A stretch of DNA of 64,000 nt from Escherichia phage Ecwhy_1. The translations under genes and the position numbers were made by a program. The DNA lies in sequence record MH791411.1; one strand, given 5' to 3'. Positions 3,553 through 64,000 of this stretch are shown here, piece after piece (positions within the stretch are counted from its first letter, which is position 1; each line of letters opens with the position of its first letter). Under the pieces are notes generated by a model, which was given only the letters and a program-made list of their open reading frames with translations, was not told where the DNA came from and made no database searches.

Positions 3553-3579
3553 CGTTTGTATTCCTTTACGTTTATTAAG

Positions 3580-3610
3580 TTAAAAATAAAGCCCCCATTC
3601 ATTGGAGGCT
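3580..3610 (-). terminator. hairpin plus T-run immediately upstream of the polymerase SD (terminator and/or gp43-type translational operator)
   Basis: Minus-strand read AGCCTCC-aatgaat-GGGGGCT followed by TTTATTTTT, about 20 nt before the polymerase ribosome-binding site. Confidence 0.5.
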
Positions 3611-11943: not shown

Positions 11944-11977
11944 TATATCCTCCATAGATATATTACATTCATATAAA

Positions 11978-29009: not shown

Positions 29010-29498
29010 ATGAGTAAATGGGAAATCAAAAATACCGACGAACAATTTTTTAAAGAAATTAAAGAATTTGAAGGTACTATTGCGTATCAGAAAAAACTTG
29101 GTTATTTTAAAAATGATAAGTTTTGGGTATATAAAGACAGTCTAGGTCTTGATACCATTGGTTACGGTCACCTTGTACTTAAGGGTGAAAGTTTCAAAAA
29201 TGGACTCACTGAAGCAGAAGCTGATGCTCTCCTTATAAAAGATGCTCAGACCGCTTACAATGACGCAAAATCAATCTATGATCAATTTGGAATGACTGCT
29301 CCAGTACAGGTTCAGCGTGTATTGTGGTTTATGGTGTTCCAAATGGGTAAATCAAAAGTTTTAAATTTCAAAAAAGCGATGGCTGCTCTCGGTCGTGGTG
29401 ATTATAAAACTGCTGGTAAAGAAATGCGTGATAGTTCGTGGTACAAACAAACCACATCCAGAGCGGAGAAGATGGCTCGCATCGTCGAATCCGTATAA
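29010..29498 (+). CDS. e: lysozyme / endolysin, GH24 (T4 gene e-like), 162 aa
   Basis: EFEGT...YKDSLGLDTIGYGHL...MVFQMG...WYKQTTSRAEK matches T4 lysozyme motifs including the catalytic Glu/Asp/Thr; paralogous to the C-terminus of the spike. Confidence 0.9.
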   Translation: MSKWEIKNTDEQFFKEIKEFEGTIAYQKKLGYFKNDKFWVYKDSLGLDTIGYGHLVLKGESFKNGLTEAEADALLIKDAQTAYNDAKSIYDQFGMTAPVQVQRVLWFMVFQMGKSKVLNFKKAMAALGRGDYKTAGKEMRDSSWYKQTTSRAEKMARIVESV

Positions 29499-33507: not shown

Positions 33508-33553
33508 ATCATAAATAAATCAAATGAATGAACGAATTATATGGAGTCCAAAA

Positions 33554-39500: not shown

Positions 39501-42500
39501 TTCGTGATACAATCTATGTACCACCATTGCATTCCAGAACTAAATCTTGTACTGATATTGCTCGTATTATTAAAGAACCAGCACAGCTTAACATTCCTTG
39601 GTTTGCACCAATCAATGAAAGCTCGTTCATTCTAAGTAATATGCAATTTGAAGTCAACGATGACACAAGTATTTTAACTGTTTCTTATTACATGGATAAT
39701 ACTGAAGTTATTAAACATGACCAGTATCAATTATGTAAAGAAGGTGATAGCTATAACTTCAATCCATCAATCTGGACTTCTATGTGGAATTCTATGATTG
39801 GTCAAGAAACTACTGAATCAGGAACTGTTATTGATTTACTATATCCTTTAGTACCAAACGGTTTAGGTTCTAATAAGACTTGGTTCCAAGATGTAATTGA
39901 AGCTCGTAGAAACTTTGTAGAAAGTGCAAATAACTATTATCGCTCACAGAATATAACAACTAACACTGTTCTAATGGACGAAGTGTTTAATGTTAAAACT
40001 ACTGAAGTTAACCCGAATGAAGTATCATATCGTGTACTAACTTACAATAGTGAATTAGTCATTGCACCTGAAAGTGACAAGTTCAAAGAAAACGACGCAG
40101 TACTAGTAAGTACTAGTGGTGTATTACCTAACCCACTATCAACTAGCTCTGTATATTTTGTGCATATTGATGCTAATGGTTATATTCATCTAATGAATAG
40201 TCCATCAAGTGCTGGTAGTGTGGTTACCATTACATTGGAAAACCGTGGTGAAGGTCAACAGAAAATGATTAAACAATCAGACTATGTTGAAGCACTAGGA
40301 ACTTCATTGGACATGACCCAGTACTGGTCACTAGCAGATTGGTATGATATTGGCTACGATAAAAATACTGCATATACACAAGAATCCAGCCTAGAAGATG
40401 CAAACACTAAGAACTATCAAGTTGGTGACATTATCAGAATTACAGATGTTGATGGCATCTGGACATTGTACATTAAAGCACAATCACGTGATTCAGTTTA
40501 CTGGAAAGCAATTGGTCGTGAAAATAGTACAGTTGAATTGAATGATATGTTATACGCTGACTATACAGTTCGTGATGCTAATGGTTCGTTGAGTAATCGT
40601 GAGATTAACGTTCGTAAAGCACTAGCTTTATTGAAGAACTCATTCGACTTACATCAGAGTGAAATTGTGTTTGATATGGTTAAGTATGTTCACGTAGAAC
40701 AAAGCGTTGTTGATTGGGTATTCAAAACATCTTACATTTATATTGTAGGTTTAGAACAATCATTAGTACAGAACTATTCCAACGACAACTTGATTAATCA
40801 AATCGTTGAGTACTTTGAAGAAGTTAAACCATATAGAACTAAGATTCGTTCCCAGATTGAACAGAAAACTTCAGATGATGATTTAATTAAAGGTTTGTGT
40901 AATGATTTAGATCCTAATGGCTATATATTTGCAGATGGGACTTGGGTTAAAACGGAAAAAGACATTTGGGATTATGAATATGCTCAATTCAATGAGGTAA
41001 CTCAACGTTGGGAGCAAGTTGGTGAATTGCCAAGTGATTTCGTAACACCTAATCGCCGTTTCCAAGAAATTGATGTTATCATGCACTACGACAACACTCA
41101 ATGTAAACCAAATGATAATTTGGCAAGTGTTGATGTATTGGAAGAAGTGAATAAGAAATATCAATCTAATGCACAAGATGTTGTTAGTAATTTTGAATTA
41201 CAACGTTACAAATATACATTCCCAGAATACAGTGATGAAGATTTCGACCTATTGGTTGCTTATCAGATGCAATTGTATTACCCAGAATTGAACGTAACTC
41301 TAGGGATTGCTTACGGTGTTAACCAATGGTATGCAGACCATGCAGATGATTTGGTAGCAACCGCAGAATTCACAGAAACGTTGAATCGTGTATATAAAGA
41401 ATCAACACAAAATGAAATGTTTAATGACGTAAATCATTATGTTCAGTATAACACACTCTCTAACCGTTTGAAATTGTACACAGGTGCAGATGATGAAGTA
41501 ATTCATGATGAGGTTGGATGTGGATTTAGTGGGTTAACCTATGATGATAATCCAAGCACCAGACTACCGTTTGGTTATGCATCCAGTACTGATTATAACT
41601 TTGGTTACTTTGAAGTTAGTAGTGAGTTGTATAAAAAGTATGTTTCTTTAATTAAAGAAAACAATACTACTGCAACTGATGATGAAGTTAGAATTATACT
41701 TGAAGTTGAATATGGTGTTTATTCATATCGCCATGTAGATGAAGATGGAAATCAACGATTCTACAATGACGCAATTCATGTATTGTCTGGTATGCGTGGT
41801 TTGTATGACAAAGATGCTACCGACCATTATGAAAAGGCTGAAGAAATACTAAGTAGAATGCCTATTGATATTCATGCATTTACTATGATGCCACGAAAAT
41901 ATGTTTATGTTAATGTTAATGGTGTATACGAGAGTATCCCAGATGACCAAAGCATTGATGATTTCATGGAAGACAAATTCATAACTGACGGTCAACTAGT
42001 TCAATTGGCAGAAATAAATCTTGATGACTTACCTCTTGATAGAAATAACCCAATGTACAGTGATTATCAGCACATCCTAGATAGCATCACCGATGCTAAG
42101 TACTACGATGATATGAATGCATTTGATAACCTAGCACTTGAATCACAAACTTCCGAGTTAAAATGGGAAGTTGAAGGTGACGAAGTAGATCCGTACATAA
42201 TCGACATTTCTGATATTAACCCATCAGGAAGAAAGATTGGTCAGATTCGCTTCACAGTTGATGGTTATGGATTCAATAGTGTTTCACTAGTTCAATTGAG
42301 AGACAATAGTAGATATAAAACTGAAGGTATGGTTATCATCAACCCTTATAAAACAACAGAAGCAATTGTTAGTATTCCTTCTTACGCTAAGATTGAAAAT
42401 GATATTAGTAAATCATACAGTAAGTATGATGAAAAATACTTCTATAAAATTAAATCAATTGTTAGTGATACAGAAGCTGAAGTAATTGACAATACCCTAT

Positions 42501-43558: not shown

Positions 43559-45847
43559 TTACGCAATAACTTTTTCTACTGCTTTAGTGCGTTTAGGTTT
43601 GATAGCCAATTTACCATCAATCACATCAAACGTCACGTTACCACCATTAACTAGAGAACCACACAACATCTCTTTAGCTAGTGGAACACGGATGTTTTGC
43701 TCAATAGTGCGTTTCATTGGACGTGCACCCATCCCAACTTTAACACCATTTGTTGCCAACCACTCACGTGCCGCTTTAGTCAGGGAAACTTTAACTTTGC
43801 GGTCTTTGATTTGTTCATTCAGACTACCCATGAACTTATCAATGATGCTGTCAATCGCTTCGCTGCTTAGGTCTTTGAATGTCACAATACTATCGATACG
43901 GTTGATGAATTCAGGTGGCAAGAATGCTTTAATAGCTTTATCTTGTGCTGTATCACTACCGCTCATCCCAATACTACGCTTGGTTGAATCTGCTGCACCA
44001 AGGTTAGTCGTCATAATAACAGTTACGTTATTGAAGTAAACAGTTTTACCTTGTGAACCAGTCAAACGTCCTTCGTCCAGAACCTGTAGGAAGGTTAGTA
44101 GTACTTTACGATCAGCTTTTTCGATTTCATCAAGCAACAGTACTGCATTCGGGAACTGCTCAATCTTGTCGAGTAGCAGACCGTTACCAGAATCGTGACC
44201 AACATAGCCTGGAGGTGAACCAATCAGTTTAGCAACAGTATGTTCCTGTGAAAACTCGGACATATCGAAACGAATCAGTTCGGAACCAGTTGCATCAGCC
44301 AGTGCTTTGGTAATTTCAGTTTTACCAGTACCAGATGGACCAACAAACATGAATGCACCTTGAACACTTGATTTATCACGCAGACCAGCACGAGCTACCA
44401 TCACGTTATCAACCAGTTTCTGTACTGCTTCTTCTTGACCGTATACACGAGAACGGAGTGCATCTGGTAGATTACGCATACGTTCACTTTCAGTGCAAGC
44501 AACCACGTTAATATCTAGGTTTGCGATACCTGCAACAACTTCTTGAATCAGTGCAACAGTGATGATGTTATCATCAGTTTCACGAGAACGTACTTTCGCT
44601 GCTGCCGCATCCATTAGGTCGATTGCTTTGTCAGGGAAGTGTTTGTTCTTCAGGAACTTATCACTTAGTGTAATAACTGCATCCATTGCTTCAGTACTGA
44701 ACTCTACGTTATGGAAAGTTTCATAAGTAGATTTCAAACCATTCACAATCGCACGGGTTTCATCAATTGTTGGCTCAACTACATCAATTTTCATGAAACG
44801 GCGAGTTAGTGCACTATCTTTTTCGATGTTTTTACGATATTCATCGTAAGTTGTTGCACCGATTACACGAATCTCACCACGAGATAGTGCAGGTTTGAGC
44901 ATGTTGCTCATATCCATAGAACCGTTGCTTGCTGACCCAGCACCAACCATAATATGGATTTCATCGATGAACACAATAGTGTTTTCACGTTTCTTCAGTT
45001 CTTTTAGTAGGTTATCGATACGTTCTTCGAACTCACCACGGTACTTAGTACCAGCAGTCAGTGCACCTACGTTCAGAGACAGAATTTCAACATCTTTAAG
45101 ATGCTCTGGTACTTCACCATCAGCGATTGCCTGTGCTAGACCATCAATGATTTGAGTTTTACCAACACCAGCTTCACCAGTCAGGATGGCATTCTTCTTA
45201 GTCTTACGGGCCAGAGTTTCAATCAGTGCAGAAAGCTCTTTCTGGCGACCAATCATTGGGTCAAGTTTACCTTCTTTTGCAAGTGCGGTTAGGTTAGTGG
45301 TGTAATCTTCTAAACCTTTTTGTTTGGACGATGGTTGCTGTTGTGCCACTTTTTTCTCCCCAGTTGGCTCATCACTAATGCTTTGAAGGTTGATTCCGTT
45401 GTCGATTGCTTCTACGTGCTTCTGTAGAGTTCGTGCTGCTTCAGTACAAGTGATACCCTCTTCACGCAATGCTGCTTCTAGTGCAGTATTTGGGAAGGAC
45501 AAACACTCAAACAGTACAAAATAAGCATCAATTGAGAAATCATCACGTTTAAGTTGCTCAATTACTGATTTCTTAGAAAGTTCCTGAACTACACGGTTCA
45601 CGAGAAGTGATGTGCGGTTCGCTTCATCACCATCAGCACTTTTAGGTGCATGTGGGAATGTTGTATTCTTCAGATATGCAATCAAACGACCGTGTAGGTT
45701 GTCTGCATCGATGTTCATATCTTCAAATACTGCTTTGATGCTATCGATTGTCAGTACTGTAGCACTTAGATGGTCAATAGTCAAGAATGTATGACCCAGA
45801 GAAGTTGCCAGTTCGTCGCTTTTTTTGAATAATTGGGTAAGATTCAT
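43559..45847 (-). CDS. clpA: ClpA-family AAA+ unfoldase (two AAA+ modules), ~762 aa
   Basis: D1 Walker A GEAGVGKT, Walker B IVFIDEIH, arginine-finger region ALTRRF; D2 Walker A GPSGTGKTE, Walker B LLLDEIEKA, sensor MTTNLG and GARPMKR; collinear with E. coli ClpA as recalled; AGGAGA SD. Confidence 0.9.
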   Translation of the reverse strand: MNLTQLFKKSDELATSLGHTFLTIDHLSATVLTIDSIKAVFEDMNIDADNLHGRLIAYLKNTTFPHAPKSADGDEANRTSLLVNRVVQELSKKSVIEQLKRDDFSIDAYFVLFECLSFPNTALEAALREEGITCTEAARTLQKHVEAIDNGINLQSISDEPTGEKKVAQQQPSSKQKGLEDYTTNLTALAKEGKLDPMIGRQKELSALIETLARKTKKNAILTGEAGVGKTQIIDGLAQAIADGEVPEHLKDVEILSLNVGALTAGTKYRGEFEERIDNLLKELKKRENTIVFIDEIHIMVGAGSASNGSMDMSNMLKPALSRGEIRVIGATTYDEYRKNIEKDSALTRRFMKIDVVEPTIDETRAIVNGLKSTYETFHNVEFSTEAMDAVITLSDKFLKNKHFPDKAIDLMDAAAAKVRSRETDDNIITVALIQEVVAGIANLDINVVACTESERMRNLPDALRSRVYGQEEAVQKLVDNVMVARAGLRDKSSVQGAFMFVGPSGTGKTEITKALADATGSELIRFDMSEFSQEHTVAKLIGSPPGYVGHDSGNGLLLDKIEQFPNAVLLLDEIEKADRKVLLTFLQVLDEGRLTGSQGKTVYFNNVTVIMTTNLGAADSTKRSIGMSGSDTAQDKAIKAFLPPEFINRIDSIVTFKDLSSEAIDSIIDKFMGSLNEQIKDRKVKVSLTKAAREWLATNGVKVGMGARPMKRTIEQNIRVPLAKEMLCGSLVNGGNVTFDVIDGKLAIKPKRTKAVEKVIA

Positions 45848-45885
45848 GTATTCTCCTAAATGAGTAGTCACTCTAATTAATAAAC

Positions 45886-45913
45886 ATTATATCACATTCT
45901 TTGCGTTTGTCAA
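45886..45913 (-). promoter_or_regulatory. near-consensus sigma70 promoter TTGACA-N16-TG-n-TATAAT driving the ClpA-like gene
   Basis: Minus-strand TTGACA (45913-45908), 16-nt spacer, extended -10 TGATATAAT (45894-45886); about 35 nt upstream of the ATG. Confidence 0.7.
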
Positions 45914-51034: not shown

Positions 51035-51532
51035 TTAGTAGTTAATTAAAATTTGTTCTAACTTACCAGCTAAACTTTTTTGTACATCAGATGGATACTT
51101 GCTAATGTAATCACGGTCAATACCAACTTTCAGATAGGTAAAGTTTCCGGTTAAGGTTTCAGCGAATGTACCAGTTGTACCTTGTTCTCTAATAAGGTCA
51201 CCACCATTTGGGTTAAGAATGACATTATCAGTAAATTCAAGATAGAAGTTGCAGCTTTCGGTAAATTTAATTGGGAACCAATCATCGTCAGATGGATTAC
51301 TTGCCAGTGTAGCGAGTACGTAAATTCTACCAATGAAGTTACGTAGGGTAAAGGATATTGTATGTAATCCTGTAGTACTACCATAATAGCCGCCACTAGC
51401 TAATGGTAATGTTTGTTCGTTCCAATGATAATCTAAGTTAGCAGGATACCAGCTATCTGATTCAGGAAATTCTTGCCATGAACCATCTTTAGTTTTTCTT
51501 TTGAAGAGGAAGTCTTTTGATCTTAATGCCAT
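51035..51532 (-). CDS. structural protein (165 aa)
   Basis: AAAGGG SD; AATAAATA late-type motif upstream; no recognisable motif. Confidence 0.35.
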   Translation of the reverse strand: MALRSKDFLFKRKTKDGSWQEFPESDSWYPANLDYHWNEQTLPLASGGYYGSTTGLHTISFTLRNFIGRIYVLATLASNPSDDDWFPIKFTESCNFYLEFTDNVILNPNGGDLIREQGTTGTFAETLTGNFTYLKVGIDRDYISKYPSDVQKSLAGKLEQILINY

Positions 51533-52783: not shown

Positions 52784-54925
52784 ATGGCAGTTTTTTCCAA
52801 TTTAGAAGGGACCATGATGCCAACATTCAAGTTGGGTAAACGTGGTGCTTCTATTAATTTTGTAAACGATTCTGTCGCAATCAAAGACTTTTTAGGCGAA
52901 ACGTTCCTACCTGTTAAGGTGGGAACTCCTAATGACGATGATTCCGCAGTAAACGTTAGGTATCTTGAAGATAACCCAAATGCTTTATTTGGCGTACTTC
53001 CACCAACAAATGACATTGGTAAAAATAACAACACTTATTTTCAAGTTGATTCTGAGGGTATTGTTGATATCTTTGCAAAAACAAATGATGTTTGGGTAAA
53101 ATCATTATACATTAATAAAAATGTCCTTTCCAGTGTTAACGGTGCTGATTATATCGGACTTATTACTGGAGGAACACTTCAACAGGCACAGTTTTACATA
53201 ACTCCAGAAGAGTTTGGTGCAAAAGGTGATGGCATCACTGATGACACGGCGGCGGTTAACGCATGTGCAGTTTATGCTAAAGAACACAAAATCCAAATTC
53301 AAGCTGGTGGTAATTATCGTATCAGAACTGCTGTTTATTTGAATGATATTCAATGGTTTGGTGGTACAATCACTGGTAACGGTGGCACAATGGTATCGGT
53401 ACTGAATAGTACAATCCAACAAGCAACATTAACAGGATGTTATTTAAAATTCTTTGGTGGTAATGGTAAATTTTATTTTAATAAATTTATTAATATTACA
53501 AGTACTGCTGCATTTCTAATGCAAGGTATGACTGAATCAGGTACTATCGACTTCTGCTTTAATGAAATGACACAATGTAAGTACGGTGTTCTTCAGCAAG
53601 GCACTGGTGAGAAAATGACCGTTGGGCGTTATTCATACAACCACATCCATGATATATATGGTGATGCAATTGAATTGAACGTAGTCAACTCACATTACCC
53701 AGACGGATTTGTAATAGAAGGTAACTTGATTGAAAACGTAGATGGTACAAATGCACCAATTCCTCTTTCAAACTGGGGTATTGGTATCGGTGTTGCAGGT
53801 TCTGGTCCTTATGATGTGAATGCTGATGATTCACAATATGTAAAAAAATTCGTTATAAAAAATAACCGCTTGTACAATGTCCGTCAATGTATTCACGTTG
53901 AGTTGGGTAAAGACTTTAAAATTCTCAATAATGAAGTTTATCCATCAACGTTGGTATCAATTGGTACTGGTTTGACAACCGCTGGTGTAATTACTTATGG
54001 TTCTGTTGATTTTATTATTGATGGCCTATCTGGGCATCTATTAAATGATCCATCAGTAACTAACCGTATGGTTTCTATTAACTGGGGCGTAACATCTGGT
54101 AAATTTGCTGGTCCTCCACGAAACTTTAAATTATGTAATCTCCACATTCCTGAGTCGTCTATTATTGTGTATACTTCAGGCTCTGATAATTGGCTAAATA
54201 CTACTGAACTTTCTAATATTACATGTAGTAGAATTCAATGGCGTGGATTGCCGTCATCTTCCAAGTTTAATAATATCAGTACTAAAGAACTTGATGTTAT
54301 TGGACAACACCTTGCAACTGAAGGTGAAGGAGGGGGCTTATATACTCGCTCTAAATATACATATACCAACTGGACTAATTGTGTTGTTCAAGATGATTGT
54401 AACATATCAAAATATAGTTTCTCAAGAATGTATGTTGACCGTATTGACCAATCATCTAATAACTTTAAAGTAACCACTGCAATTGATGGAACGGGTCATC
54501 GTGGACCTGTAGTAATACCTGTAGTTGAACAGTATTACGTGCCTTATGATGTTTTTCCTGGTGGGAGATATTTCCCAGCAGGAACAATTATCCATAAACA
54601 ATCAGGTGGAAAATTTATTGTTACAGTAGGTGGTTCTTTCTTTGGTCGATATGACACAATTAGACAAACAGTTGCAGGACAAACTTATATCGAAGCATTG
54701 GGTGTATCATGGGGTGATAATCAATATGCTAAAGCTGCTGGAACCGAAATCCTAATCACAGGAGCAGGGGAAAATGGCGAAGATTTAAAAACATATATCA
54801 CTAGAGCAGTTTATGTTGTTAATAATGCGTATCGTATCGATATTGCCGATCCGATTGTTACTGCTACCGCAGCAGGGGCATTATTGAAAGCTGCTCAACC
54901 AATAACATATATCACCCTATCTTAA
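52784..54925 (+). CDS. tailspike with pectate-lyase-like beta-helix (probable polysaccharide depolymerase), 713 aa
   Basis: ITPEEFGAKGDGITDDTAAVNA is the hallmark N-terminus of pectate-lyase-3-type tailspike beta-helices; N-terminal MAVFSNLEGTM adapter shared with the next gene. Confidence 0.6.
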   Translation: MAVFSNLEGTMMPTFKLGKRGASINFVNDSVAIKDFLGETFLPVKVGTPNDDDSAVNVRYLEDNPNALFGVLPPTNDIGKNNNTYFQVDSEGIVDIFAKTNDVWVKSLYINKNVLSSVNGADYIGLITGGTLQQAQFYITPEEFGAKGDGITDDTAAVNACAVYAKEHKIQIQAGGNYRIRTAVYLNDIQWFGGTITGNGGTMVSVLNSTIQQATLTGCYLKFFGGNGKFYFNKFINITSTAAFLMQGMTESGTIDFCFNEMTQCKYGVLQQGTGEKMTVGRYSYNHIHDIYGDAIELNVVNSHYPDGFVIEGNLIENVDGTNAPIPLSNWGIGIGVAGSGPYDVNADDSQYVKKFVIKNNRLYNVRQCIHVELGKDFKILNNEVYPSTLVSIGTGLTTAGVITYGSVDFIIDGLSGHLLNDPSVTNRMVSINWGVTSGKFAGPPRNFKLCNLHIPESSIIVYTSGSDNWLNTTELSNITCSRIQWRGLPSSSKFNNISTKELDVIGQHLATEGEGGGLYTRSKYTYTNWTNCVVQDDCNISKYSFSRMYVDRIDQSSNNFKVTTAIDGTGHRGPVVIPVVEQYYVPYDVFPGGRYFPAGTIIHKQSGGKFIVTVGGSFFGRYDTIRQTVAGQTYIEALGVSWGDNQYAKAAGTEILITGAGENGEDLKTYITRAVYVVNNAYRIDIADPIVTATAAGALLKAAQPITYITLS

Positions 54926-54939
54926 AGGAGATTATAAAA

Positions 54940-55839
54940 ATGGCAGTTTTTTCTAATTTAGAAGGAACCATGAAGAAGACCTTCATACTTGGTAAAAATG
55001 GTGCACAAATTGCCACTAATGGTAATGTTGTTCAAATCCAGAACTACACGGGTACACAACTTCTTCCTGTTTCAGCAGGTGACCCAACCGCAAATACACA
55101 CTTGGTTACATTGGGTTATTTGAATACACATAGCGGTGGTGGTGGTGGTTCCGGTATTTTACGTGGAACTATTGCACCATCTGAATCAATCGGTGTAGAT
55201 GGTGACGCTTACTTCTTAGTTGACAGTACTAATATTATTCAGATCTATATTAAAGACCTTGGTGTTTGGAAGCCTCTCCAAAGCACAACTCCAGGTACTG
55301 ATAGTTCTTACGTTACTACTGAAATCGTTCCTGTATCGGCATTTACATTAGTTCCTGGAACAACAGATCAATATACTTATTCTTTGCCTGAATCAGTACA
55401 TGGTCGTGGTCCAGATATTATGGTTCAGCTACAGGGTGATCCTGGTAACATCCCACTTGACACTGTATTCCAAACTAACGTCACTGTGAGTGGTATTGGT
55501 GACATTACGATTGATGTTATTGGTCAAATCACTGAATACACAAGTGTCAAAGTCAACATCATAGGAGCAACAACAATGACAGTACCTTATAGTAAATTAA
55601 TTAATATAGCAGATTGGGTAGCATCTGGTGATGATTACACCATTACTGTTCCAGCGTCAGAACATAACCAAACACCTGACAATTTGTATATTTCTATATA
55701 TTCAAATAAAACACCAGGCAGTACAGCAGCATCACCATTTGAACTGGTAATAACCGAAACTCAAATTGATGCAAGTGGTAATGTTACATTCACTTCTGAC
55801 GAAGCGTTTAGTGGTAAAATAGTAATTTCCGGTAAATAA
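54940..55839 (+). CDS. second receptor-binding protein sharing the N-terminal adapter, 299 aa
   Basis: First ~35 nt nearly identical to 52784 (MAVFSNLEGTM...LGK.GA); distinct C-terminal domain; poly-Gly linker GGGGGSG. Confidence 0.5.
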   Translation: MAVFSNLEGTMKKTFILGKNGAQIATNGNVVQIQNYTGTQLLPVSAGDPTANTHLVTLGYLNTHSGGGGGSGILRGTIAPSESIGVDGDAYFLVDSTNIIQIYIKDLGVWKPLQSTTPGTDSSYVTTEIVPVSAFTLVPGTTDQYTYSLPESVHGRGPDIMVQLQGDPGNIPLDTVFQTNVTVSGIGDITIDVIGQITEYTSVKVNIIGATTMTVPYSKLINIADWVASGDDYTITVPASEHNQTPDNLYISIYSNKTPGSTAASPFELVITETQIDASGNVTFTSDEAFSGKIVISGK

Positions 55840-55845
55840 AAAAAA

Positions 55846-55882
55846 TAGTCCAGACTATGATTCATCTAGTCTGGATTTTTTA
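55846..55882 (+). terminator. rho-independent terminator
   Basis: TAGTCCAGACTA / TAGTCTGGA stem followed by TTTTTT. Confidence 0.7.
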
Positions 55883-55889
55883 TATCAAT

Positions 55890-55915
55890 AACTAAATATA
55901 TGTATATTAACAAGG
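55890..55915 (+). repeat. fiber-gene promoter box AACTAAATATATGTATATTAACAAGG (copy 1; copy 2 at 60972..60998)
   Basis: Near-identical 26-27-bp element 43-44 nt upstream of both long-fiber ATGs; contains late-type ACTAAATA. Confidence 0.6.
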
Positions 55916-55957
55916 TCAAATGTATTTTATGCTTTTTGCCTATTTGGAGGGAACTAA

Positions 55958-58900
55958 ATGTACTCGATTAAAACAGATCTCGATATAACTGGTGGTGCAA
56001 CGGTTGCTAAAGATCTTCTTGTGAAAGGCGATGCAGTATTCAATAAAAATCTAACAGTTAATGGAACTGTAACTTTTGCTGACGCTGTATTCACTGCAAT
56101 TGAAGCAGAAACTGTAGACATTTCATCTACACTAGATGTTGCTGGTAAAGCATCATTGAATGGTGGAATTGAAGTTCATGGTAATTCCGTAATTGGTAAT
56201 TTGCCTGTTGGTTCTGATACTGCAACGATTAATTCTAATGCACAATTCCAAAGCCCAGTATCAATGGCAGGTAATCTAACACAAACCGCTGGCACTGCTG
56301 TACTAAAAGATACCCAAGTGGCATCAATGGATGTTCTTGGGACTTCTTCATTTAAAGGTAATATTACTGCTGAAACTGGCACTACCGCAGCATTTGACAA
56401 AATAACTGCAACTGATGCAACATTCACAAACACTGCAACTACTGATATCACATCAACTGGAACTGCAAACTTTAAAGATGTGAATATTTCCGGTACACTA
56501 GGTGGAACATTTAGTCTATCTGATGTTAATGCAACAACTCTAACTGTTTCTGGTTTAACCAGTCTACAAGGTGGTGTTACATTAGGTTCCAACATTACTG
56601 GTGTGAATAGTAGTGCAAACTTCCGTGATATTAAAATTGGTTCCAATGCTGCAAACACTAACTACCGTTTGAGCTTTAACTATTCTGCTCCAAGTCTTCG
56701 TCCAACTGTAATTCTACAGAACGAAATCCAATCAGAATTGATGTCTCCAGCTACCCTAAGTGTATTGAAAACTGCATCTTTTGGTGATTCGTCACTATCC
56801 ACTTTTGGTATTACTGGTAATGGTCTAAACAAACTAGATTACCTAACAGTATCTGGTAACTCTGTTCAAGATCCAACAACTCCACTATTACAAGTAACTT
56901 CAGGTAAAACTAAAGTTCATGATTTCGAAGTAACAGGAACTGCAACTATTCCTAACATTGAAAGTACTGGTACTGCTAATTTTAATAACATCAACGTATC
57001 TGGTACACTCGGTGGTACTTTCAGTCTTGATGATATTGAAGCAAACACACTAACTGTATCCGGTTTAACTAGCCTTGTTGGTGGTGTAACTTTAGGTGCT
57101 GATATTTCCGGTGCTAATAGTACTGCTAATTTTAAAGCAGTAAGTTTAGGACAAAACGCCGCCGATGCTAACGTTAAGTATGGTTTTGCTTATTCTGCCC
57201 CTGGTGCTCGCCCAACTGTAATTCTACAAAATGAAATTCAGTCTGAGCTAGTATCTCCAGCAGTACTTAATGTACAAAAAACTGCAACCTTTGGTGATGC
57301 ATCTCTTGCAACCTATGGTATCACAGGTAACGGTCTAAACAAACTAGATTATCTATCTATTACTGGTAATGGTACACAAAGTCCAGCTACCCCACAACTA
57401 CAAGTTGCTGGTAAATCAGTACTAAATGATGTTGAATTCACTGGTACTGTAACTGGTCTAACTGTTGATGTGAGTGGACAAGATCTAACTCCTAAATCAG
57501 TAGATGCTGCTGAAGCAATCAAAGGTCAAACCCTTGAATCAGTTGGTCAAACCACAGTAGGAACTAACCTACAAGTTGGTGGAACTGCTAATGTTGTTGG
57601 TGCACTAACTGGTACTGCTGCTACCTTCACTGGTGATGTAAGTGCTGCTAAAGGTACTTTCAGTGGTGATGTTAGCGTTACTGGTCAAACTGTAACTGTA
57701 CGTGATTTAGTAGTAACTGGTACAACTACTGGTGTAACTGCCCAAGCTGATGTTGATGGTCTTGATATCGCCCCAAATAAAGTTGATGTTACAACAACAC
57801 TATCTGTTGCTGGGGACACTACTTTAGCTGGCCTAACTGCTAGTTCAGTAACCAGTACTGGTGATGTTACTGGTGCGTCTGTATCTGGTAATACAGTAAC
57901 TGCGGCTGGGGCACTATCTGGTGGTTCTCTTGCAGTAACTGGTGCTGGTTCTATGGCTTCACTAACTGTTCCAAGTATTACTGGTGACACTACTTTTGCT
58001 AATAACGTAACTATTACTGGAACACTAACTCCGAGTAGTATAGATTTAAGCACTACTGATGTAAGTGCTGCTTCTTTAACAACTACTGGTAACGTAACTG
58101 TTGGTGGTTCTCTTGCAGTAACTGGTGCTATTGATTTGTCTGCTGCTGATGTAGTAACAAAATCAGTTAGTGCAACTAACCCAAGTACATTTGGTGTAAT
58201 TAATGCATCTTCTGTTGCCGCAACTGGTGACGTTTCAGGTGGCACACTAACTACTACTGGTGCAGCGAAAGTAGGAACACTAACTAGTACTGGTGTAGTA
58301 TCTGGTTCGCGTTTGTCTTCTGGTACTGCAACAATCACAACTTCTGTAACAGTTCCAACTTTACAAGCTGAAGCTGCTGGTGCTGGTACACTAAATCTAG
58401 CAAGTAATGTTGTCGCGGCAAAAGATCTAACTGTCACTGGTGTATTCAAACCTGAAGGTGGTCTTGATCTAACAACTGTTGATATTACTGCAAACTCACT
58501 AACTACTACTGCTGATGTTAATGTTGGTGGAAACTTAGTAGTTGATGGTACTTTTGACCTAAGTGCTGCTGATGTGTCTGTGAAATCTCTTGCAAGTGCA
58601 GAGACAATTACAAGTGCTGGTGTTATTACCGTTACCGATTCAACCAATACTAGTTCGTTACCTAAAATTACTTCAACTGATGCAACACTCTTTACAGTAA
58701 ATGCAGGTACTATTAATGCAACTGGTAACAGTGTACTACAAAGTGTATCAGCTACTCAAGTAACTGCTAATAGTGCTGAATTTTCTGGTGGTGGCCTTGG
58801 TCTTCAAGTTGATAATGATGCAAACGTTGGTGGTGCATTATCTGTTGGTGGCATTGCAACTGTTGGTTCTTTAACAACAACTGCTGCTTCTCTTAATATT

Positions 58901-60892
58901 GCAAAAAATACTGCAATCACTGGTGATTTAGCTGTATCTGGCACACTAACTGCTGGTTCAATCGACCTAAGCAATACTGATGTAACCGTTAAATCTCTTG
59001 ATTCACTAGGTAACGCACACATTGCTGGTAACCTAACTGTAGATGGTGCATTCGACTTAAGTGCAACTAACCTTGTAGCTGCAAGTCTAGCAAGTACTGG
59101 TTCTACTACTGTTGGAACTGATCTAGTACTAACAACTGGTGTTGTGACTGGTAGCCCAGCTATCTCTGGTAATACAACAATCGGTGGAACTCTTGGTGTA
59201 ACTGGTGCTGTTAACCTAACTGATATTGTTAATATCGGTAAGAAAGTAACAGTGAGTACTGGTGGTATTCAGGTAGTTGATGGTGGTATCAATACTAACA
59301 CAATTAACGTTTCTGGTGCTTCTACTCTAGCAGGAACTTCCATTACTGGAACTTTAGGTGTAACTGGTGCTTCTACTCTAGCAGGTGTATCTGCGACATC
59401 ACTAACAGTTTCTGGTGACAGTACTGTTCAGAAACTAACTGTCCAAGGTGAATTGATCCCACAAGGTGGTCTTGACCTAAGCGGTGCAGACATTACTGCT
59501 AATAGTCTAACTACTGCGACAACTATCAATGCAACTGGCCTAAGTACTCTAAGTGGTGGTGTTAGTACTTCTACTGTGACTGCATCTGGTCTAGCAACTG
59601 TTGGAAGTTTAACTTCTACTGCAAACGCATCAGTTGGTGGTAATTTGGGTGTAACTGGAACTCTAGGTGTTACTGGTGCAACTACTGTATCTTCACTAAC
59701 AGCTACTGGTGCAGTGAAAACTGGTACAACCCTAACTGTTGGTACTCCAGTTGGTGAACAACCTGAAACTGTACAGATCATTCCAGATACTTATATTGCT
59801 GGTAAATTGCGTGTAATCGGTGGTATTAACGCTGAAATCGACGTAAGTGGTCAAACACTAGAACCATATGCAATTGAAGCTGCTGCAACACTATCTGCTG
59901 TTGGTAACATTACTTCTGGTGCAACCATCGTTTCTAAAGCTGCAACAATTGGTGATGTTGGTTCACAAAACAACAACCTAACTGTTAATGGTAACGTAGT
60001 AACTAATGGTGACTTCACCGTTACTGGTGTACTAAATGCACAATTGAACCAAGCAGATTCCGATGTAGCTGTTAAGTCTTTGACTGCAACTAATAACGTT
60101 GCGGCTGGTACTTCAATCACTGCTGGAACATCCATCACTGCATCAGGCTTACTAAAAGGTAATTCGTTAGAAGTCACCACTACTGGTTCATTTGGTGGTG
60201 CAGTAACTATGTCAAGTGGTGCAAACATCACTGGTACTGTTGGTATCACTGCTGGTGACCTAACAGTAGGTGGTAATATCTCTGCAACTGGTACTGCTGG
60301 ATTCGGTGCAACAACCGTTTCTACCATTACAACATCAGGTTTAGCTACCCTTGCAAGTGCATCTGTAACTGGTGCTCTAACTGTAGGTGGTACATTAACT
60401 GCAAATGGTAACACTGTGATTGGTGATGCTGCTGCTGATACTTTAACTGTAAATGCAACATCTACATTTAAAGAGAACGCAACATTTGATAAGAACCTAA
60501 CAGTGACTGGTTCTATTAACACCACCACTGCAAACTTCACTACAAACAACATGGTAACTAAGAAATATTCTGTTATCCCTGCTAGTGTTACTGCTTCTAC
60601 TGCTGCTGTAGGTGGCACTTGGACACCAGATGGTACTACTAACGTATATCGCTTAACTCTTGACCAAAGTGTTACAATGGATTCCATCGCGGGTCTAATT
60701 GGTAGTGGTCAAGCATGTTCAGTGTATATCTATGTAACTCCATCTGTTGCTGATACTACTTTCACCTTCGGTGGTGCATACTCTGTAGTTTCTGGTACAG
60801 TAAGTGCTGTAGTTGGTCAAACAAGTATTATCCAAGTAATCTATGATGGTTTCAGTACTGTGTTTGATACCTTCGTTGCACAACGTGTATAA
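55958..60892 (+). CDS. long tail fiber protein, 1644 aa
   Basis: Thr/Gly/Ala/Val/Ser-rich with many internal repeats (ISGTLGGTFSL..., TGNGLNKLDYL..., VDVSGQDLTPKS... each occurring twice or more); GGAGGG SD. Confidence 0.65.
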   Translation: MYSIKTDLDITGGATVAKDLLVKGDAVFNKNLTVNGTVTFADAVFTAIEAETVDISSTLDVAGKASLNGGIEVHGNSVIGNLPVGSDTATINSNAQFQSPVSMAGNLTQTAGTAVLKDTQVASMDVLGTSSFKGNITAETGTTAAFDKITATDATFTNTATTDITSTGTANFKDVNISGTLGGTFSLSDVNATTLTVSGLTSLQGGVTLGSNITGVNSSANFRDIKIGSNAANTNYRLSFNYSAPSLRPTVILQNEIQSELMSPATLSVLKTASFGDSSLSTFGITGNGLNKLDYLTVSGNSVQDPTTPLLQVTSGKTKVHDFEVTGTATIPNIESTGTANFNNINVSGTLGGTFSLDDIEANTLTVSGLTSLVGGVTLGADISGANSTANFKAVSLGQNAADANVKYGFAYSAPGARPTVILQNEIQSELVSPAVLNVQKTATFGDASLATYGITGNGLNKLDYLSITGNGTQSPATPQLQVAGKSVLNDVEFTGTVTGLTVDVSGQDLTPKSVDAAEAIKGQTLESVGQTTVGTNLQVGGTANVVGALTGTAATFTGDVSAAKGTFSGDVSVTGQTVTVRDLVVTGTTTGVTAQADVDGLDIAPNKVDVTTTLSVAGDTTLAGLTASSVTSTGDVTGASVSGNTVTAAGALSGGSLAVTGAGSMASLTVPSITGDTTFANNVTITGTLTPSSIDLSTTDVSAASLTTTGNVTVGGSLAVTGAIDLSAADVVTKSVSATNPSTFGVINASSVAATGDVSGGTLTTTGAAKVGTLTSTGVVSGSRLSSGTATITTSVTVPTLQAEAAGAGTLNLASNVVAAKDLTVTGVFKPEGGLDLTTVDITANSLTTTADVNVGGNLVVDGTFDLSAADVSVKSLASAETITSAGVITVTDSTNTSSLPKITSTDATLFTVNAGTINATGNSVLQSVSATQVTANSAEFSGGGLGLQVDNDANVGGALSVGGIATVGSLTTTAASLNIAKNTAITGDLAVSGTLTAGSIDLSNTDVTVKSLDSLGNAHIAGNLTVDGAFDLSATNLVAASLASTGSTTVGTDLVLTTGVVTGSPAISGNTTIGGTLGVTGAVNLTDIVNIGKKVTVSTGGIQVVDGGINTNTINVSGASTLAGTSITGTLGVTGASTLAGVSATSLTVSGDSTVQKLTVQGELIPQGGLDLSGADITANSLTTATTINATGLSTLSGGVSTSTVTASGLATVGSLTSTANASVGGNLGVTGTLGVTGATTVSSLTATGAVKTGTTLTVGTPVGEQPETVQIIPDTYIAGKLRVIGGINAEIDVSGQTLEPYAIEAAATLSAVGNITSGATIVSKAATIGDVGSQNNNLTVNGNVVTNGDFTVTGVLNAQLNQADSDVAVKSLTATNNVAAGTSITAGTSITASGLLKGNSLEVTTTGSFGGAVTMSSGANITGTVGITAGDLTVGGNISATGTAGFGATTVSTITTSGLATLASASVTGALTVGGTLTANGNTVIGDAAADTLTVNATSTFKENATFDKNLTVTGSINTTTANFTTNNMVTKKYSVIPASVTASTAAVGGTWTPDGTTNVYRLTLDQSVTMDSIAGLIGSGQACSVYIYVTPSVADTTFTFGGAYSVVSGTVSAVVGQTSIIQVIYDGFSTVFDTFVAQRV

Positions 60893-60910
60893 CATTTTAA
60901 ATTAATAATT

Positions 60911-60944
60911 AAAGCCAACTTTTTTAGTTGGCTTTTTCTTTTGT
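60911..60944 (+). terminator. rho-independent terminator
   Basis: AAAGCCAACT-tttttt-AGTTGGCTTT hairpin followed by a T-run. Confidence 0.75.
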
Positions 60945-60971
60945 ATTAGATAATAGTGTTTTTGTGAATTA

Positions 60972-60998
60972 AACTAAATATAAGTATATTAACAAAAG
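60972..60998 (+). repeat. fiber-gene promoter box, copy 2
   Basis: AACTAAATATAAGTATATTAACAAAAG, near-identical to 55890..55915. Confidence 0.6.
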
Positions 60999-61041
60999 AT
61001 GGGTTATGAATATATAGTTCATCGTTATAGGAGGGGACTCT

Positions 61042-64000
61042 ATGTACTCGATTAAAACGGATCTTGATGTATCTGGTAATTCCACGGTAGGTAAGGATCT
61101 TTTGGTCAAAGGTAATGCAGTATTCAGTAATGACCTAACGGTTAATGGGGAAGTGTCTTTTGCTAACGCAGTATTCACTGCAATTACCGCTGGTTCTGTG
61201 AATGTCACAGGTGCATTGGATGTTGCTGGTAAGGCAACCTTATCCGGTGGTGCTGATGTTTCAGGTGCTGCGACATTTGCAGGAAACATTACTGCTGCTG
61301 GCGGCACAACTGCAAAATTTGATAACTTAGAAGCTAATTCAGGATCATTTGATTCTGTTGAATCAACTGATATTACTTCAACTGGCACAGCAACTTTTAA
61401 AGATGTAAACATTTCTGGTACACTTGGTGGTACTTTTAATCTTTCTGATATTAATGCTACAACACTTAATGTGTCTGGTGCTTCAGCACTAACTGGTTCA
61501 GTCACATTGGGTGCAAATATCACTGGTCTTGCAAGTACTGCAAACTTCCGTGATATTCGTATCGGGCCTAATGAAGCAGGTCAAGCATATAGACTAAACT
61601 TTGGTTACACCGTTCCAGGACAACGACCAACCGTTCTTCTACAGAACGAAGTTCAATCCGAACTAATGTCACCAGCTAAGTTGAATGTTCTACAAACTGC
61701 AACATTTGGTGATTCTTCACTTTCAACTTACGGTATTACAGGTAATGGTTTAAACAAATTAGATTATGTAACTATTTCTGGTAACGCAATTCAATCACCA
61801 ACCACTCCTTTACTTGAAGTAACTAAAGGTAAAACTAAAGTTGTTGATTTAGAAGTAACTGGTGTAGCAACTATTCCTAATATCGAAAGTTCTGGTACTG
61901 CAAACTTTAACAACATCAACGTATCTGGTACTATTGGTGGTAGTTTTGATTTAGATGATATCCAAGCAACAACATTATCAGTATCCGGTGCTTCAGCACT
62001 AACTGGTGCAGTTACATTGGGTGCAAACATCACTGGTCTAGCAAGTACTGCAACATTCAAAGCAATCAATTTGGGTCAAAATACCGCTGATGCTAACGTT
62101 AAGCTAGGTTTTGCATATACTGCACCTAGTGCACGTCCAACAGTCTTGTTAGCAAACGAAGTTCAATCTGAACTAATGTCTCCTGCTAAGTTGAACGTTC
62201 TACAAACTGCAACCTTCGGTTCTGCTGCACTATCTACCTATGGTATTACTGGTAATGGTCTAAACAAATTAGATTATCTAACAATTACTGGTAACGCAAC
62301 ACAAAACCCTGCTACTCCACAACTTCAAGTTGGTGGTAAAGCAATTCTTAATGATGTTGAATTTACAGGTACTGTAACTGGCCTAACTGTTGATGTGAGT
62401 GGACAAGATCTAACTCCTAAATCAGTAGTTGCTGCTGAAGCAATCAAAGGTCAAACTCTTGAATCAGTTGGTCAAACAACTGTAGGTTCATCTCTACAAG
62501 TTGGCGGTACTGCAACTGTTACTGGTGCATTATCTGCTGCCTCTGGTACTTTCAGTGGTGATGTTAGTGGTTCTAAAGGTATCTTCAGTGGTAGCGTATC
62601 CGGTACAAGTGCAACCTTTACTGGGGATGTTAGCGGTGATAACGCAACCTTTAGTGGCGATTTATCTGCTGTAGCTGGCACTTTCAGTGGTGATGTAACC
62701 GTAACTGGTCAAACAATCACTGTTAAAGACTTGGTAGTAACTGGAACTTCAACTGGTGTAACTGCAATCGCTGACGTTGACGGTCTTGATATTGCTCCAA
62801 ACAAAGTTGATGTTACAACAACTCTATCTGTTGCTGGTGAATCAACTCTTGCTGGTATTACAGCAACTTCAATCAATAGTACTGGTGCAATTGCAGGTAC
62901 TGCAATTTCTGGCTCTACTATTACAGCAACTGGTGAAATTTCTGGTGCATCATCTGTAGTAACTGGTCTTTCTAAATCTGGTAGCGTTGAAACTGGTGCT
63001 CTAAAGGCATCTTCTGTTGAAACTGCAATCATTAGCAACACTGCTGGTGTGTCAATAACAAACAACACTTCCATTGCAGGTAATCTATCTGTGACTGGAA
63101 CTGTTACCCCTGGTGCAATTGACCTAAGCACTACTGATATTGATGCTAAGTCCCTAACTACAACTGAAGGTGCTAACATTGGTGGTAACCTAGTTGTTGC
63201 AGGTACAGTTGATCTAAGTGCTGCTGACGTTGCTGTTAAATCTCTAACCAGTACTGGTGCAGTTATTAGTTCTGAAGGTACTGTAAGTAGTGTTCTACCT
63301 AAACTTTCCAGTACTGAAGCTAATATTACCACAGTAACTGCAACCACTGCAAATGCTACCACACTAAATGTAACTGGTACATCAACTCTAGCTGGTGTTA
63401 ACGCTTCTGGTGCTATTACTTCTGCAACTAACATTACCGCTACTGGTGTATTAAAAGGTGCATCTGTTGAAACTGCGTCAATCAGCAATGCTGATGGTGT
63501 AGCAATTAACAATAACACTACAATCACTGGTAATTTGGACGTATCTGGGACATTGACCCCTGGTGCAATTGACCTAAGCACTACTGATATTAGTTCTAAG
63601 TCTCTAACCACAACTGAAGGTGCTACAATTGGTGGCGATCTTGTGGTAGCAGGTACTGTTGACCTAAGTGCTGCTGATGTGTCTGTGAAATCTCTTGCAA
63701 GTGCAGAGACAATTACAAGTGCTGGTGTTATTACAGTTTCGGATACAGTGAATTCTAGCACTCTACCAAAACTAATTACTACTGATGCAACTATTGGTGC
63801 TGTCCATGCAGCTACTATTGAAACAACTGGTTCAAGTACACTAAAACAAGTATCTGCTACTGAAGTAACAGCTACAAGTATTGTACTAAATTCAGTTGGT
63901 GAAGGTTTACGTGTTGACAATAATGCAAACATTAATGGTATATTAAGTGTTAATAATATTACTTCTACCAATGATACTATTGCAATTGCGAAAAGTGCTG
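61042..64000 (+). CDS. second long tail fiber paralog, 5' partial (continues beyond the window)
   Basis: Not in the ORF track because no stop occurs before the window end; ATG at 61042 with GGAGGGG SD; N-terminus MYSIKTDLDVSGNSTVGKDLLVKGNAVF is nearly identical to the 55958 gene. Confidence 0.6.
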   Translation, partial: MYSIKTDLDVSGNSTVGKDLLVKGNAVFSNDLTVNGEVSFANAVFTAITAGSVNVTGALDVAGKATLSGGADVSGAATFAGNITAAGGTTAKFDNLEANSGSFDSVESTDITSTGTATFKDVNISGTLGGTFNLSDINATTLNVSGASALTGSVTLGANITGLASTANFRDIRIGPNEAGQAYRLNFGYTVPGQRPTVLLQNEVQSELMSPAKLNVLQTATFGDSSLSTYGITGNGLNKLDYVTISGNAIQSPTTPLLEVTKGKTKVVDLEVTGVATIPNIESSGTANFNNINVSGTIGGSFDLDDIQATTLSVSGASALTGAVTLGANITGLASTATFKAINLGQNTADANVKLGFAYTAPSARPTVLLANEVQSELMSPAKLNVLQTATFGSAALSTYGITGNGLNKLDYLTITGNATQNPATPQLQVGGKAILNDVEFTGTVTGLTVDVSGQDLTPKSVVAAEAIKGQTLESVGQTTVGSSLQVGGTATVTGALSAASGTFSGDVSGSKGIFSGSVSGTSATFTGDVSGDNATFSGDLSAVAGTFSGDVTVTGQTITVKDLVVTGTSTGVTAIADVDGLDIAPNKVDVTTTLSVAGESTLAGITATSINSTGAIAGTAISGSTITATGEISGASSVVTGLSKSGSVETGALKASSVETAIISNTAGVSITNNTSIAGNLSVTGTVTPGAIDLSTTDIDAKSLTTTEGANIGGNLVVAGTVDLSAADVAVKSLTSTGAVISSEGTVSSVLPKLSSTEANITTVTATTANATTLNVTGTSTLAGVNASGAITSATNITATGVLKGASVETASISNADGVAINNNTTITGNLDVSGTLTPGAIDLSTTDISSKSLTTTEGATIGGDLVVAGTVDLSAADVSVKSLASAETITSAGVITVSDTVNSSTLPKLITTDATIGAVHAATIETTGSSTLKQVSATEVTATSIVLNSVGEGLRVDNNANINGILSVNNITSTNDTIAIAKSA

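Follow-up and report, generated by a model that had tools for sequence, protein, structure and literature searches.

Tandem paralogous long fiber genes in the jumbo coliphage Ecwhy_1: an old duplication with diverged distal tips

The closest described counterpart of the locus studied here is the single-copy long fiber gene of the Asteriusvirus and Rak2-like phages, represented by 121Q gp571, phAPEC6 gp256, PBECO4, CBB_226 and the GAP32 'long tail fiber proximal subunit'. The subject of this study is a 64,000-nucleotide (nt) stretch of Escherichia phage Ecwhy_1 (MH791411.1), referred to as the window, which comes from an E. coli jumbo myophage of the 121Q/PBECO4-like (Asteriusvirus-like) type and carries two such genes in tandem: gene 1, which is complete, and gene 2, which runs past the end of the window. 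The pair shares with the single-copy gene its locus, putative promoter box, amino-terminal peptide, 170-amino acid (aa) modules, shaft and carboxy-terminal domain, and gene 2 is the ortholog-like copy. Unlike the single-copy phages, the clade of the window (8 phages) and the clade of JNE01 and Turkey5 have an additional upstream paralog, gene 1, which differs in its tip and has a private segment of the shaft (aa 721-830). The two genes were found to be paralogs over their whole length that arose by an old duplication, and we consider it probable that these paralogous late genes encode two long trimeric fibers with a common anchor and different distal tips.

Receptor-binding paralogs with a shared anchor are known from several other phages, including the two long tail fibers of Shigella phage Sf14, TSP1-4 of CBA120 and the long tail fiber variants of T5-like phages. 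As in those sets, the present pair appears to combine a conserved attachment part with exchangeable distal parts and recombination at conserved junctions, but here both copies are full-length, collinear proteins of ~1650-1900 aa, the divergence is mosaic with no clean N/C split, and a branching adaptor was not identified. The fibers also resemble T4 gp34, fragments of which are deposited in the PDB, in being very long fibrous tail proteins of a T4-related myophage with a T4-like late-promoter motif. However, no proximal/distal division of labor is indicated, Pfam, NCBIfam and PHROGs yielded no gp34-type family, and the PDB matches at E≤1 did not include a gp34 chain. Tandem receptor-binding fiber paralogs that recombine in a mosaic fashion are an ordinary and familiar finding, and public genomes already carry annotations of both genes: in WPEC3, EC.P1 and fEgEco12 the two members carry the same label, either 'tail fiber protein', 'hypothetical protein' or 'long tail fiber proximal subunit', and the BF17 pair (ORF310/311) receives only a passing mention (PMC10059673).

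The sole PDB sequence match was the 793-aa putative tail fiber protein of phage phiTE (9CUY chain g, also 9MJN chain g), aligned in two stretches, the shaft and the extreme carboxy terminus (phmmer, E 1e-27 to 2e-31). We have taken this chain to be the phiTE long tail fiber because of its composition and because its relatives have helical amino termini ahead of a Thr/Gly-rich shaft. The phiTE long tail fiber is described as a trimer in which an amino-terminal helical bundle docks on the wedge and sheath initiator and is followed by a long β-helix, with a predicted length of 512 Å (PMC11972413). The part of that fiber seen experimentally comprises residues 14-171 only, short of the tip. The phiTE fiber and the CR3/CR8/POP15-type fibers are homologous to the jumbo phage proteins in the shaft and the carboxy-terminal tip domain. 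Unlike phiTE, whose relatives open with a helical amino-terminal region and a globular domain, the jumbo proteins begin MYSIKTDL..., are 2-2.4 times as long, and align only from phiTE residue 212 onward. The phiTE helical 'rip-cord' bundle and globular domain, which dock on wedge 2A and the sheath initiator, were not found in the jumbo proteins.

Two full-length paralogs with different tips

A megablast search of a phage collection with positions 55890-64000 returned 36 records, all from large myophages of Escherichia, Salmonella or Klebsiella. The E. coli jumbo phages EC.P1, WPEC5, CMSTMSU and WPEC3 matched the entire query with 98.6-99.4% nt identity, and 121Q, the type species of Asteriusvirus, matched at ~74%. 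Gene 1 is 98% identical to WPEC3 coding sequence (CDS) 402, 'tail fiber protein', and the 986 aa of gene 2 that lie in the window have 99.2% aa identity to WPEC3 CDS403. The 3' end of gene 2, which an earlier note on the window, made from the sequence alone, had proposed to recover, was obtained from EC.P1, WPEC3 and fEgEco12, where the full-length gene is a 5721-nt CDS encoding 1906 aa. By both similarity and synteny the two proteins belong to the Rak2-like/Asteriusvirus long fiber family, PHROG 4549 'tail fiber protein' (E 4e-181 for gene 1 and 4e-203 for gene 2), and they are 62-67% identical to 121Q gp571 over ~1630-1740 columns. The fiber locus lies between a 299-aa structural gene and a DUF4376 structural gene, upstream of thymidylate synthase, in an order common to WPEC3, EC.P1, fEgEco12, 121Q, JNE01, TH47 and CBB; in the annotation of the relatives, tail and baseplate genes flank the pair. 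Pfam and NCBIfam had no family for either fiber, and PF26209, listed for one database homolog, was not reproduced with a Pfam scan. No further paralog was detected in the window outside 55958-64000 by tblastn with gene 1.

The gene 1 and gene 2 proteins are collinear over their full length, with 68% aa identity in 1584 aligned columns (MAFFT). The composition is skewed (T 17.6%, G 12.4%, A 11%, V 11%, S 10%), lysine and arginine together making up only ~3% of the proteins, and the earlier note, which had described the genes as tandem paralogs, had named similarity confined to low-complexity Thr/Gly runs as the result that would overturn this view. A BLASTP comparison of gene 1 with the portion of gene 2 inside the window gave 1033 bits, compared with 119 ± 7 bits for 30 residue shuffles, and 805 bits, collinear from residue 1, remained with SEG masking and composition correction. 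Since the real score is far above that of the shuffles and survives masking, the similarity is not a low-complexity artifact, and the two genes are true paralogs across their whole length.

The amino termini had been described as nearly identical. Both proteins do begin MYSIKTDLD, but only these 9 aa are identical; the amino termini as a whole are ~67-72% identical, and the first 60 aa are not above the gene average. The amino-terminal ~48 aa are, however, conserved across genera, with 52-62% identity in four of five distant homologs whose overall identity is 41-47%; the exception is the homolog P0014 (27%). This conservation suggests that the MYSIKTDL... peptide may be a virion-attachment anchor, and its family-wide extent explains the similar amino termini without recency.

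Long internal repeats, reported earlier for gene 1, were confirmed there and found likewise in gene 2 (Table 1). The 170-aa modules of gene 1 have 55-73% aa identity (E down to 1e-35; fragment BLASTP, offset 170 aa); the modules are non-repetitive internally and, together with the carboxy-terminal domain, align well between the two genes. The 33-nt repeat present six times in gene 2 occurs in two copies in gene 1 (57585-57682). Gene 2 also has three ~150-aa shaft repeats and ~250 extra residues of ~119-aa repeats near aa 1234-1490, and the length differences among homologs are largely a matter of repeat copy number. Whole-protein self-BLAST gave no off-diagonal matches, the repeats being recovered by fragment BLAST, and Tandem Repeats Finder missed the long repeats because the copies are at most 75% identical. 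A separate observation concerns the region near 61252 (aa ~70), where gene 2 of the window clade is without 53 aa that match gene 1 aa 71-123 (56168-56326). The segment adjoins the conserved amino-terminal peptide and is kept in gene 1, 121Q gp571 and both JNE01 copies; its absence is therefore a clade-specific deletion in gene 2.

Comparison of the carboxy-terminal domains, also proposed in the earlier note, showed that the tip of gene 1 has diverged while that of gene 2 is 121Q-like. The last ~115 aa of gene 2 are 95% identical to those of 121Q, with a nonsynonymous divergence (dN) of 0.039 and a synonymous divergence (dS) of 1.08, indicating strong constraint, whereas the corresponding part of gene 1 is 54% identical to both gene 2 and 121Q (dN 0.41 against gene 2). 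For the terminal 150 aa of gene 1, AlphaFold2 run on an alignment of 19 sequences predicted that the last ~105 residues form a compact β-sandwich, with a mean predicted local distance difference test (pLDDT) score of 90.9, and 94-98 over the domain; this run superseded a single-sequence prediction for the last 189 aa (pLDDT 41). In a Foldseek search of BFVD the model had 129 matches among predicted viral proteins (E≤1e-3); those with names are mostly predicted phage tail fiber proteins and include those of PBECO4 and phiTE (E 5e-11 for the phiTE model). An exhaustive HMMER search of 1.84 billion representatives placed the tip always at the extreme carboxy terminus, in proteins of 550-2120 aa with two amino-terminal architectures, the phiTE/CR3 type and the jumbo type MYSIKTDL.... 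The exhaustive search was needed: a word-indexed search with the last 110 aa gave no match, and one with the carboxy-terminal 335 aa gave 7 matches and was swamped by low-complexity candidates. These comparisons support the view that the distal carboxy-terminal domain is the part that would separate the two genes functionally. The earlier note had suggested distal divergence and perhaps a bifunctional fiber set; the tips indeed differ, and a two-fiber set with two specificities is a reasonable reading of the sequences.

The tip of gene 1 was found by tblastn at ≥99% identity in 8 phages, each record having two matching places, and at ~72% in Turkey5 and JNE01, likewise in two places. Other Asteriusvirus genomes, including 121Q, PBECO4, phAPEC6, G17 and Sharanji, had one matching place at ~59%, a gene-2-type tip. 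At the syntenic site 121Q and CBB have one fiber gene.

Age of the duplication and exchange between the copies

The earlier note had proposed a recent duplication followed by divergence further into the genes. The aa identity between gene 1 and gene 2 forms instead a mosaic along their length (Table 1), with its peak near the 3' end. By the Nei-Gojobori method, gene 1 and gene 2 differ by a dS of 0.75 as a whole and of 0.9-1.1 in most segments, compared with 0.96 and 1.02 between either copy and 121Q and 1.0-1.5 between the flanking genes and 121Q. Since the distance between the copies equals that of either copy to 121Q, the duplication is old. Moreover, the distant two-copy phage JNE01 has both genes (1628 and 2120 aa). 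The private shaft segment of gene 1 (aa 721-830) shares 85% identity with JNE01 gene 1 and 28-32% with gene-2 copies, and the gene 1 tip is 71% identical to that of JNE01 gene 1 and 47-59% identical to gene-2-type tips. Each JNE01 copy groups with its counterpart in these diagnostic segments; both paralog lineages were therefore already distinct there, and the duplication goes back at least to the divergence of the window clade from the JNE01 clade. The distances of the flanking genes among the window, JNE01 and 121Q lineages are roughly equal and so do not decide between a gain in the two-copy clades and a loss in the 121Q-type phages. Both copies are under purifying selection (dN/dS ~0.3).

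Two tracts depart from this pattern. The dS between the copies falls to 0.29 in tract 1 (aa 474-520) and to 0.27 in tract 2 (aa 1341-1460), while the dS of the same tracts to 121Q is 0.68 and 1.18, respectively. Such a drop in synonymous divergence cannot come from purifying selection, and the tracts are therefore best explained as patches homogenized by gene conversion between copies that still recombine. JNE01 has a homogenized patch of its own, the amino-terminal 70 aa being 91% identical between its two copies.

A possible further sign of exchange is found in TH47 (MT446416, an 'UNVERIFIED' record; L007 4069-9027), which has at the locus a single 1652-aa fiber gene. As far as ~aa 1390 this gene matches gene 1 at 98-100% identity, and from there on it matches gene 2 just as closely (98-100%). 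The 191 copy-distinguishing sites in the junction region change pattern once, all being of gene-1 type to window position ~60094 and of gene-2 type from ~60127, inside the high-identity tract. TH47 is thus a candidate for a single clean gene1(5')::gene2(3') chimera, the product expected of unequal homologous recombination. The possibility that the single gene of 121Q is an ancient gene1::gene2 fusion was considered and rejected: the segment identities do not assign its 5' half clearly to either copy and point to gene 2 from aa ~720 onward, and 121Q gp571 is more simply read as the gene 2 ortholog. Programmed switching, by inversion or by a diversity-generating retroelement, was also ruled out; the inverted repeats within 55800-64000 amount to six short matches (20-29 nt, 72-81%), and the annotation of this neighborhood in the relatives includes neither an invertase nor a reverse transcriptase.

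Expression signals and neighboring genes

The signals around the pair follow the order terminator, 24-nt box, strong Shine-Dalgarno site (GGAGGG), gene 1, terminator, box, GGAGGG, gene 2 (Table 1), which supports the view that each fiber gene would be a separate transcription unit. The earlier note was right that the same upstream element and the same Shine-Dalgarno sequence precede both genes. The element, AACTAAATATA[T/A]GTATATTAACAA, is identical at 23 of 24 positions, and a search of the window allowing up to 3 mismatches located the full box at these two positions only, against an expectation of 0. The box is kept at both positions in the two-copy relatives that were fetched (WPEC3, EC.P1 and fEgEco12), and the same box is found upstream of the single-copy fiber gene of 121Q; the box is therefore ancestral to the locus. 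Apart from it, the intergenic region is not alignable between the copies.

In each box CTAAATATA precedes an A+T-rich stretch, the pattern of T4-like and Rak2-like late promoters. The Rak2-like phages CBB and GAP32 have the late-promoter consensus ATAAATA, which resembles the T4 late promoter TATAAATA, and encode a gp55-like sigma factor (PMC5259590). The window has 41 copies of TAAATA. Non-coding sequence, 5.2% of the window, holds 16 of them, and 15 of these 16 are in the sense orientation no more than 100 nt upstream of a gene start. This placement fits the Rak2-like consensus, and the core is not peculiar to the fiber genes. The box is best read as a late promoter together with flanking sequence inherited with the locus, and both genes would be transcribed late, each from its own promoter. 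Other examples of (A/C)TAAATA with an A+T-rich stretch lie upstream of the minus-strand genes 4561-6189, 8010-9185, 9276-10391, 11110-11955 and 51035-51532 and of the plus-strand genes 18324-18815, 29010-29498, 30012-33473 and 33524-43525.

Contrary to the earlier note, the terminators proved not to be the same. Both consist of a G+C-containing hairpin followed by a U-run, as intrinsic terminators do, but their sequences are unrelated when aligned. The hairpin of terminator 1 has a folding energy of -15.9 kcal/mol (z -5.3, RNA fold) and that of terminator 2 -13.1 kcal/mol (z -4.1, terminator scan and RNA fold). A CCAGACT...AGTCTGG hairpin homologous to terminator 1 is found at the equivalent place in 121Q. 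Terminator 1 would insulate gene 1 from the preceding 299-aa structural gene.

Downstream of gene 2, beyond the window (L001 24922-25701 and 25793-27757), are genes for a 259-aa DUF4376 protein and a 654-aa structural protein, whose CBB homologs were detected in abundance when virions were analyzed by mass spectrometry, with 68% and 48% coverage. In WPEC3 the hairpin 3' of gene 2 is without a clear U-run, and no TAAATA motif follows it; the 259-aa gene may therefore be co-transcribed with gene 2, and its product is a possible fiber partner.

Directly upstream of the fiber locus are genes for a 713-aa pectate-lyase-like 'colanic acid degradation' tailspike-like protein and for the 299-aa structural protein. 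Both proteins begin MAVFSNLEGTM and have in common an amino-terminal domain of ~110 aa (52784-53113 and 54940-55269; 41% identity, E 2e-19), beyond which they are unrelated, which suggests a common docking domain with two different distal modules. In JNE01 the tailspike gene (L005 1446-3588) is annotated as overlapping CDSs (1446-1871 and 1822-3588), which suggests a frameshift or a sequencing error in the record.

A giant 3333-aa open reading frame (ORF) at 33524-43525 (+) has 'virion structural protein' as its sole annotation in the relatives, and its phAPEC6 counterpart, gp245 (382 kDa), was detected by virion mass spectrometry. An N4-like phage, to which this ORF had pointed, was ruled out, the window matching 350-386-kb Asteriusvirus-like genomes. 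A perfect sigma-70 consensus promoter (TTGACA, 16-nt spacer, TATAAT) lies at 45886-45913 (-), in the intergenic region between diverging genes and upstream of the 770-aa gene 43559-45871 on the minus strand ('ATP-dependent protease' in the relatives), and a similar TTGACA...TAATAAT site lies upstream of 6953-7876 (-).

Table 1. Features of the tandem fiber locus (window positions; identities of gene 1 segments are to gene 2)
Feature	Position	Strand	Remarks
Intrinsic terminator 1	55847..55883	+	stem-loop 55847-55877 and T-run; ends the 299-aa structural gene
Putative promoter box, copy 1, AACTAAATATATGTATATTAACAA	55890..55913	+	CTAAATA late-promoter-like core
Shine-Dalgarno GGAGGG, gene 1	55946..55951	+	6 nt before ATG 55958
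Fiber gene 1	55958..60892	+	ORF, 1644 aa, Thr/Gly/Ala/Val/Ser-rich
Tandem 2 x 510-nt (170-aa) module repeat, gene 1	56457..57483	+	aa ~165-334 and 335-504; spacing 510
Low-dS tract 1, gene 1 aa 474-520	57377..57517	+	89-94% nt identity to gene 2
Low-dS tract 2, gene 1 aa 1341-1460	59978..60337	+	88-96% nt identity; holds the TH47 crossover, ~60094-60127
Predicted β-sandwich tip, gene 1 aa 1531-1644	60548..60889	+	diverged variant; AlphaFold2 model
Intrinsic terminator 2, after gene 1	60911..60943	+	AAAGCCAACT/AGTTGGCTTT stem (hairpin 60911-60935) and T-run
Putative promoter box, copy 2, AACTAAATATAAGTATATTAACAA	60972..60995	+	one mismatch to copy 1
Shine-Dalgarno GGAGGG, gene 2	61030..61035	+	6 nt before ATG 61042
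Fiber gene 2, 5' part	61042..64000	+	ATG 61042; frame open for 986 codons, continues past window end
Tandem 2 x 510-nt module repeat, gene 2	61382..62400	+	66-74% aa identity, offset 170 aa
Six 33-nt (11-aa, xGTFSGDVSxx) repeats, gene 2	62510..62706	+	repeat search, alignment
450-nt (150-aa) shaft repeat, gene 2	62992..63724	+	76% nt, 59-71% aa identity
Gene 1 first 60 aa			67% aa identity, first 9 identical
Gene 1 aa 451-650			81-90% aa identity
Gene 1 aa 721-830			28% aa identity
Gene 1 aa 1341-1460			93-100% aa identity, highest, near 3' end
Gene 1 last ~115 aa			54% aa identity

Alternative readings and biological meaning

In the reading that we favor, each protein (1644 and 1906 aa) would be a very long fiber, presumably trimeric and β-helical, with a shared layout of a ~48-aa amino-terminal anchor peptide, two 170-aa modules, a repetitive shaft and a ~110-aa β-sandwich tip, the length of the shaft varying with repeat copy number. 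Both products would use the same kind of attachment site on the virion. The gene 2 product keeps the tip found in all single-copy relatives and the gene 1 product has the diverged tip and the private shaft segment, so that the virion would show two kinds of long fiber with different distal binding specificities, which would widen or hedge the range of hosts recognized. By recombining in the conserved tracts, the genes would shuffle their tips and could lose one copy. The anatomy of the locus, the paralogy, its age, the conversion tracts, the TH47 chimera, the fold of the tip and the homology to the phiTE fiber protein come directly from the present analysis; the trimeric state, the anchoring role of the amino terminus, receptor binding by the tip and the display of both fibers on one virion are what we infer. 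Several points weigh against this scheme. Receptor binding by the tip would follow from a predicted structure, and the DUF4376 and 654-aa proteins could attach to the carboxy-terminal domain, which would make the tip a connector. The mass spectrometry evidence covers the single-copy homologs only, phAPEC6 gp256 having been found in virions (PMC7247149) and CBB_226 likewise. Electron microscopy of relatives showed only short (~29 nm) baseplate fibers and ~119 nm 'hairs' (PMC5259590). Finally, the TH47 record is labeled 'UNVERIFIED', and its chimera may reflect a collapsed assembly, which would give the same picture.

The hairs lead to the alternative that has to be taken most seriously, although we regard it as rather unlikely: that the proteins are not baseplate fibers but the long 'hairy' whiskers on the tail sheath, and possibly the collar, of Asteriusvirus/CBB-like phages, in which case the paralogs would be two whisker types or would serve different attachment rings. 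On a scale of ~0.065 nm per residue (the 512 Å of phiTE, if this refers to the 793-aa chain), gene 1 would measure ~106 nm, gene 2 ~123 nm, CBB_226 ~100 nm and phAPEC6 gp256 ~119 nm. The whiskers of CBB are 119 ± 10 nm long, compared with 28.6 nm for its baseplate fibers, and the whisker gene was explicitly left unidentified (PMC5259590). In phAPEC6, hairy fibers are anchored in three sheath rings, and gp256 is in the virion proteome (PMC7247149). The jumbo amino terminus is also unlike the baseplate-binding amino terminus of the phiTE-type relatives. However, the argument is one of length, and fibers can fold back; GAP32 has a homolog, yet whiskers were not reported for it (PMC5259590); the genes sit among baseplate and tail fiber genes; and the authors of the phAPEC6 study placed gp256 among the candidate baseplate fibers (PMC7247149). 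The fuller version, in which the proteins are the ~119-nm whiskers of phAPEC6/CBB/fEgEco12-type phages, of two types, with the conserved tract acting as a recombination hinge (TH47), is somewhat more doubtful still.

It is quite improbable that the two genes encode serial proximal and distal parts of one fiber, as T4 gp34 and gp37 do. The database label 'long tail fiber proximal subunit' on relatives and the DUF4376 and 654-aa structural genes that come after gene 2 would agree with such an arrangement, but the two proteins have the same amino-terminal anchor and the same carboxy-terminal domain family and are collinear, and are therefore equivalents rather than complementary halves; one gene suffices in most relatives, and searches of Pfam, NCBIfam, PHROGs and PDB sequences showed no similarity to gp34. 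A recent duplication in situ, with the copies only beginning to diverge distally, retains scarcely any credibility in the face of the synonymous-site analysis, which refutes it. The tandem layout, the shared box, the identical first 9 aa and the 360-nt tract at 88-96% nt identity all give an impression of recency, but the copies are separated by an inter-species distance, JNE01 already has both lineages, the intergenic region is unalignable outside the box and the terminators differ; given a dS to 121Q of 0.7-1.2, gene conversion is the better explanation of the high-identity tracts. The earlier note was thus right on paralogy and distal divergence and wrong on recency, its observation being partly confirmed and its interpretation partly supported. 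Least credible of all, and refuted, are a Thr/Gly-rich compositional artifact and a decaying redundant gene 1. The skewed composition does leave the shuffled sequences with ~119 bits, but this is far below the real score, masked or not, and the non-repetitive modules and the carboxy-terminal domain align; gene 1 is an intact ORF with a dN/dS of ~0.3, conserved at ≥99% in 8 phages.

Tail fibers decide the choice of host by a phage, and these jumbo coliphages are considered for therapy against avian pathogenic, Shiga toxin-producing and uropathogenic E. coli. A second long fiber with a different tip in one subclade is a concrete candidate for the basis of host-range differences within the genus. 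As natural sites of crossover, the conserved tracts could also be used to join the parts in engineered tip swaps. The length argument, for its part, makes these genes a testable candidate for the source of the 'hairs' of these phages.

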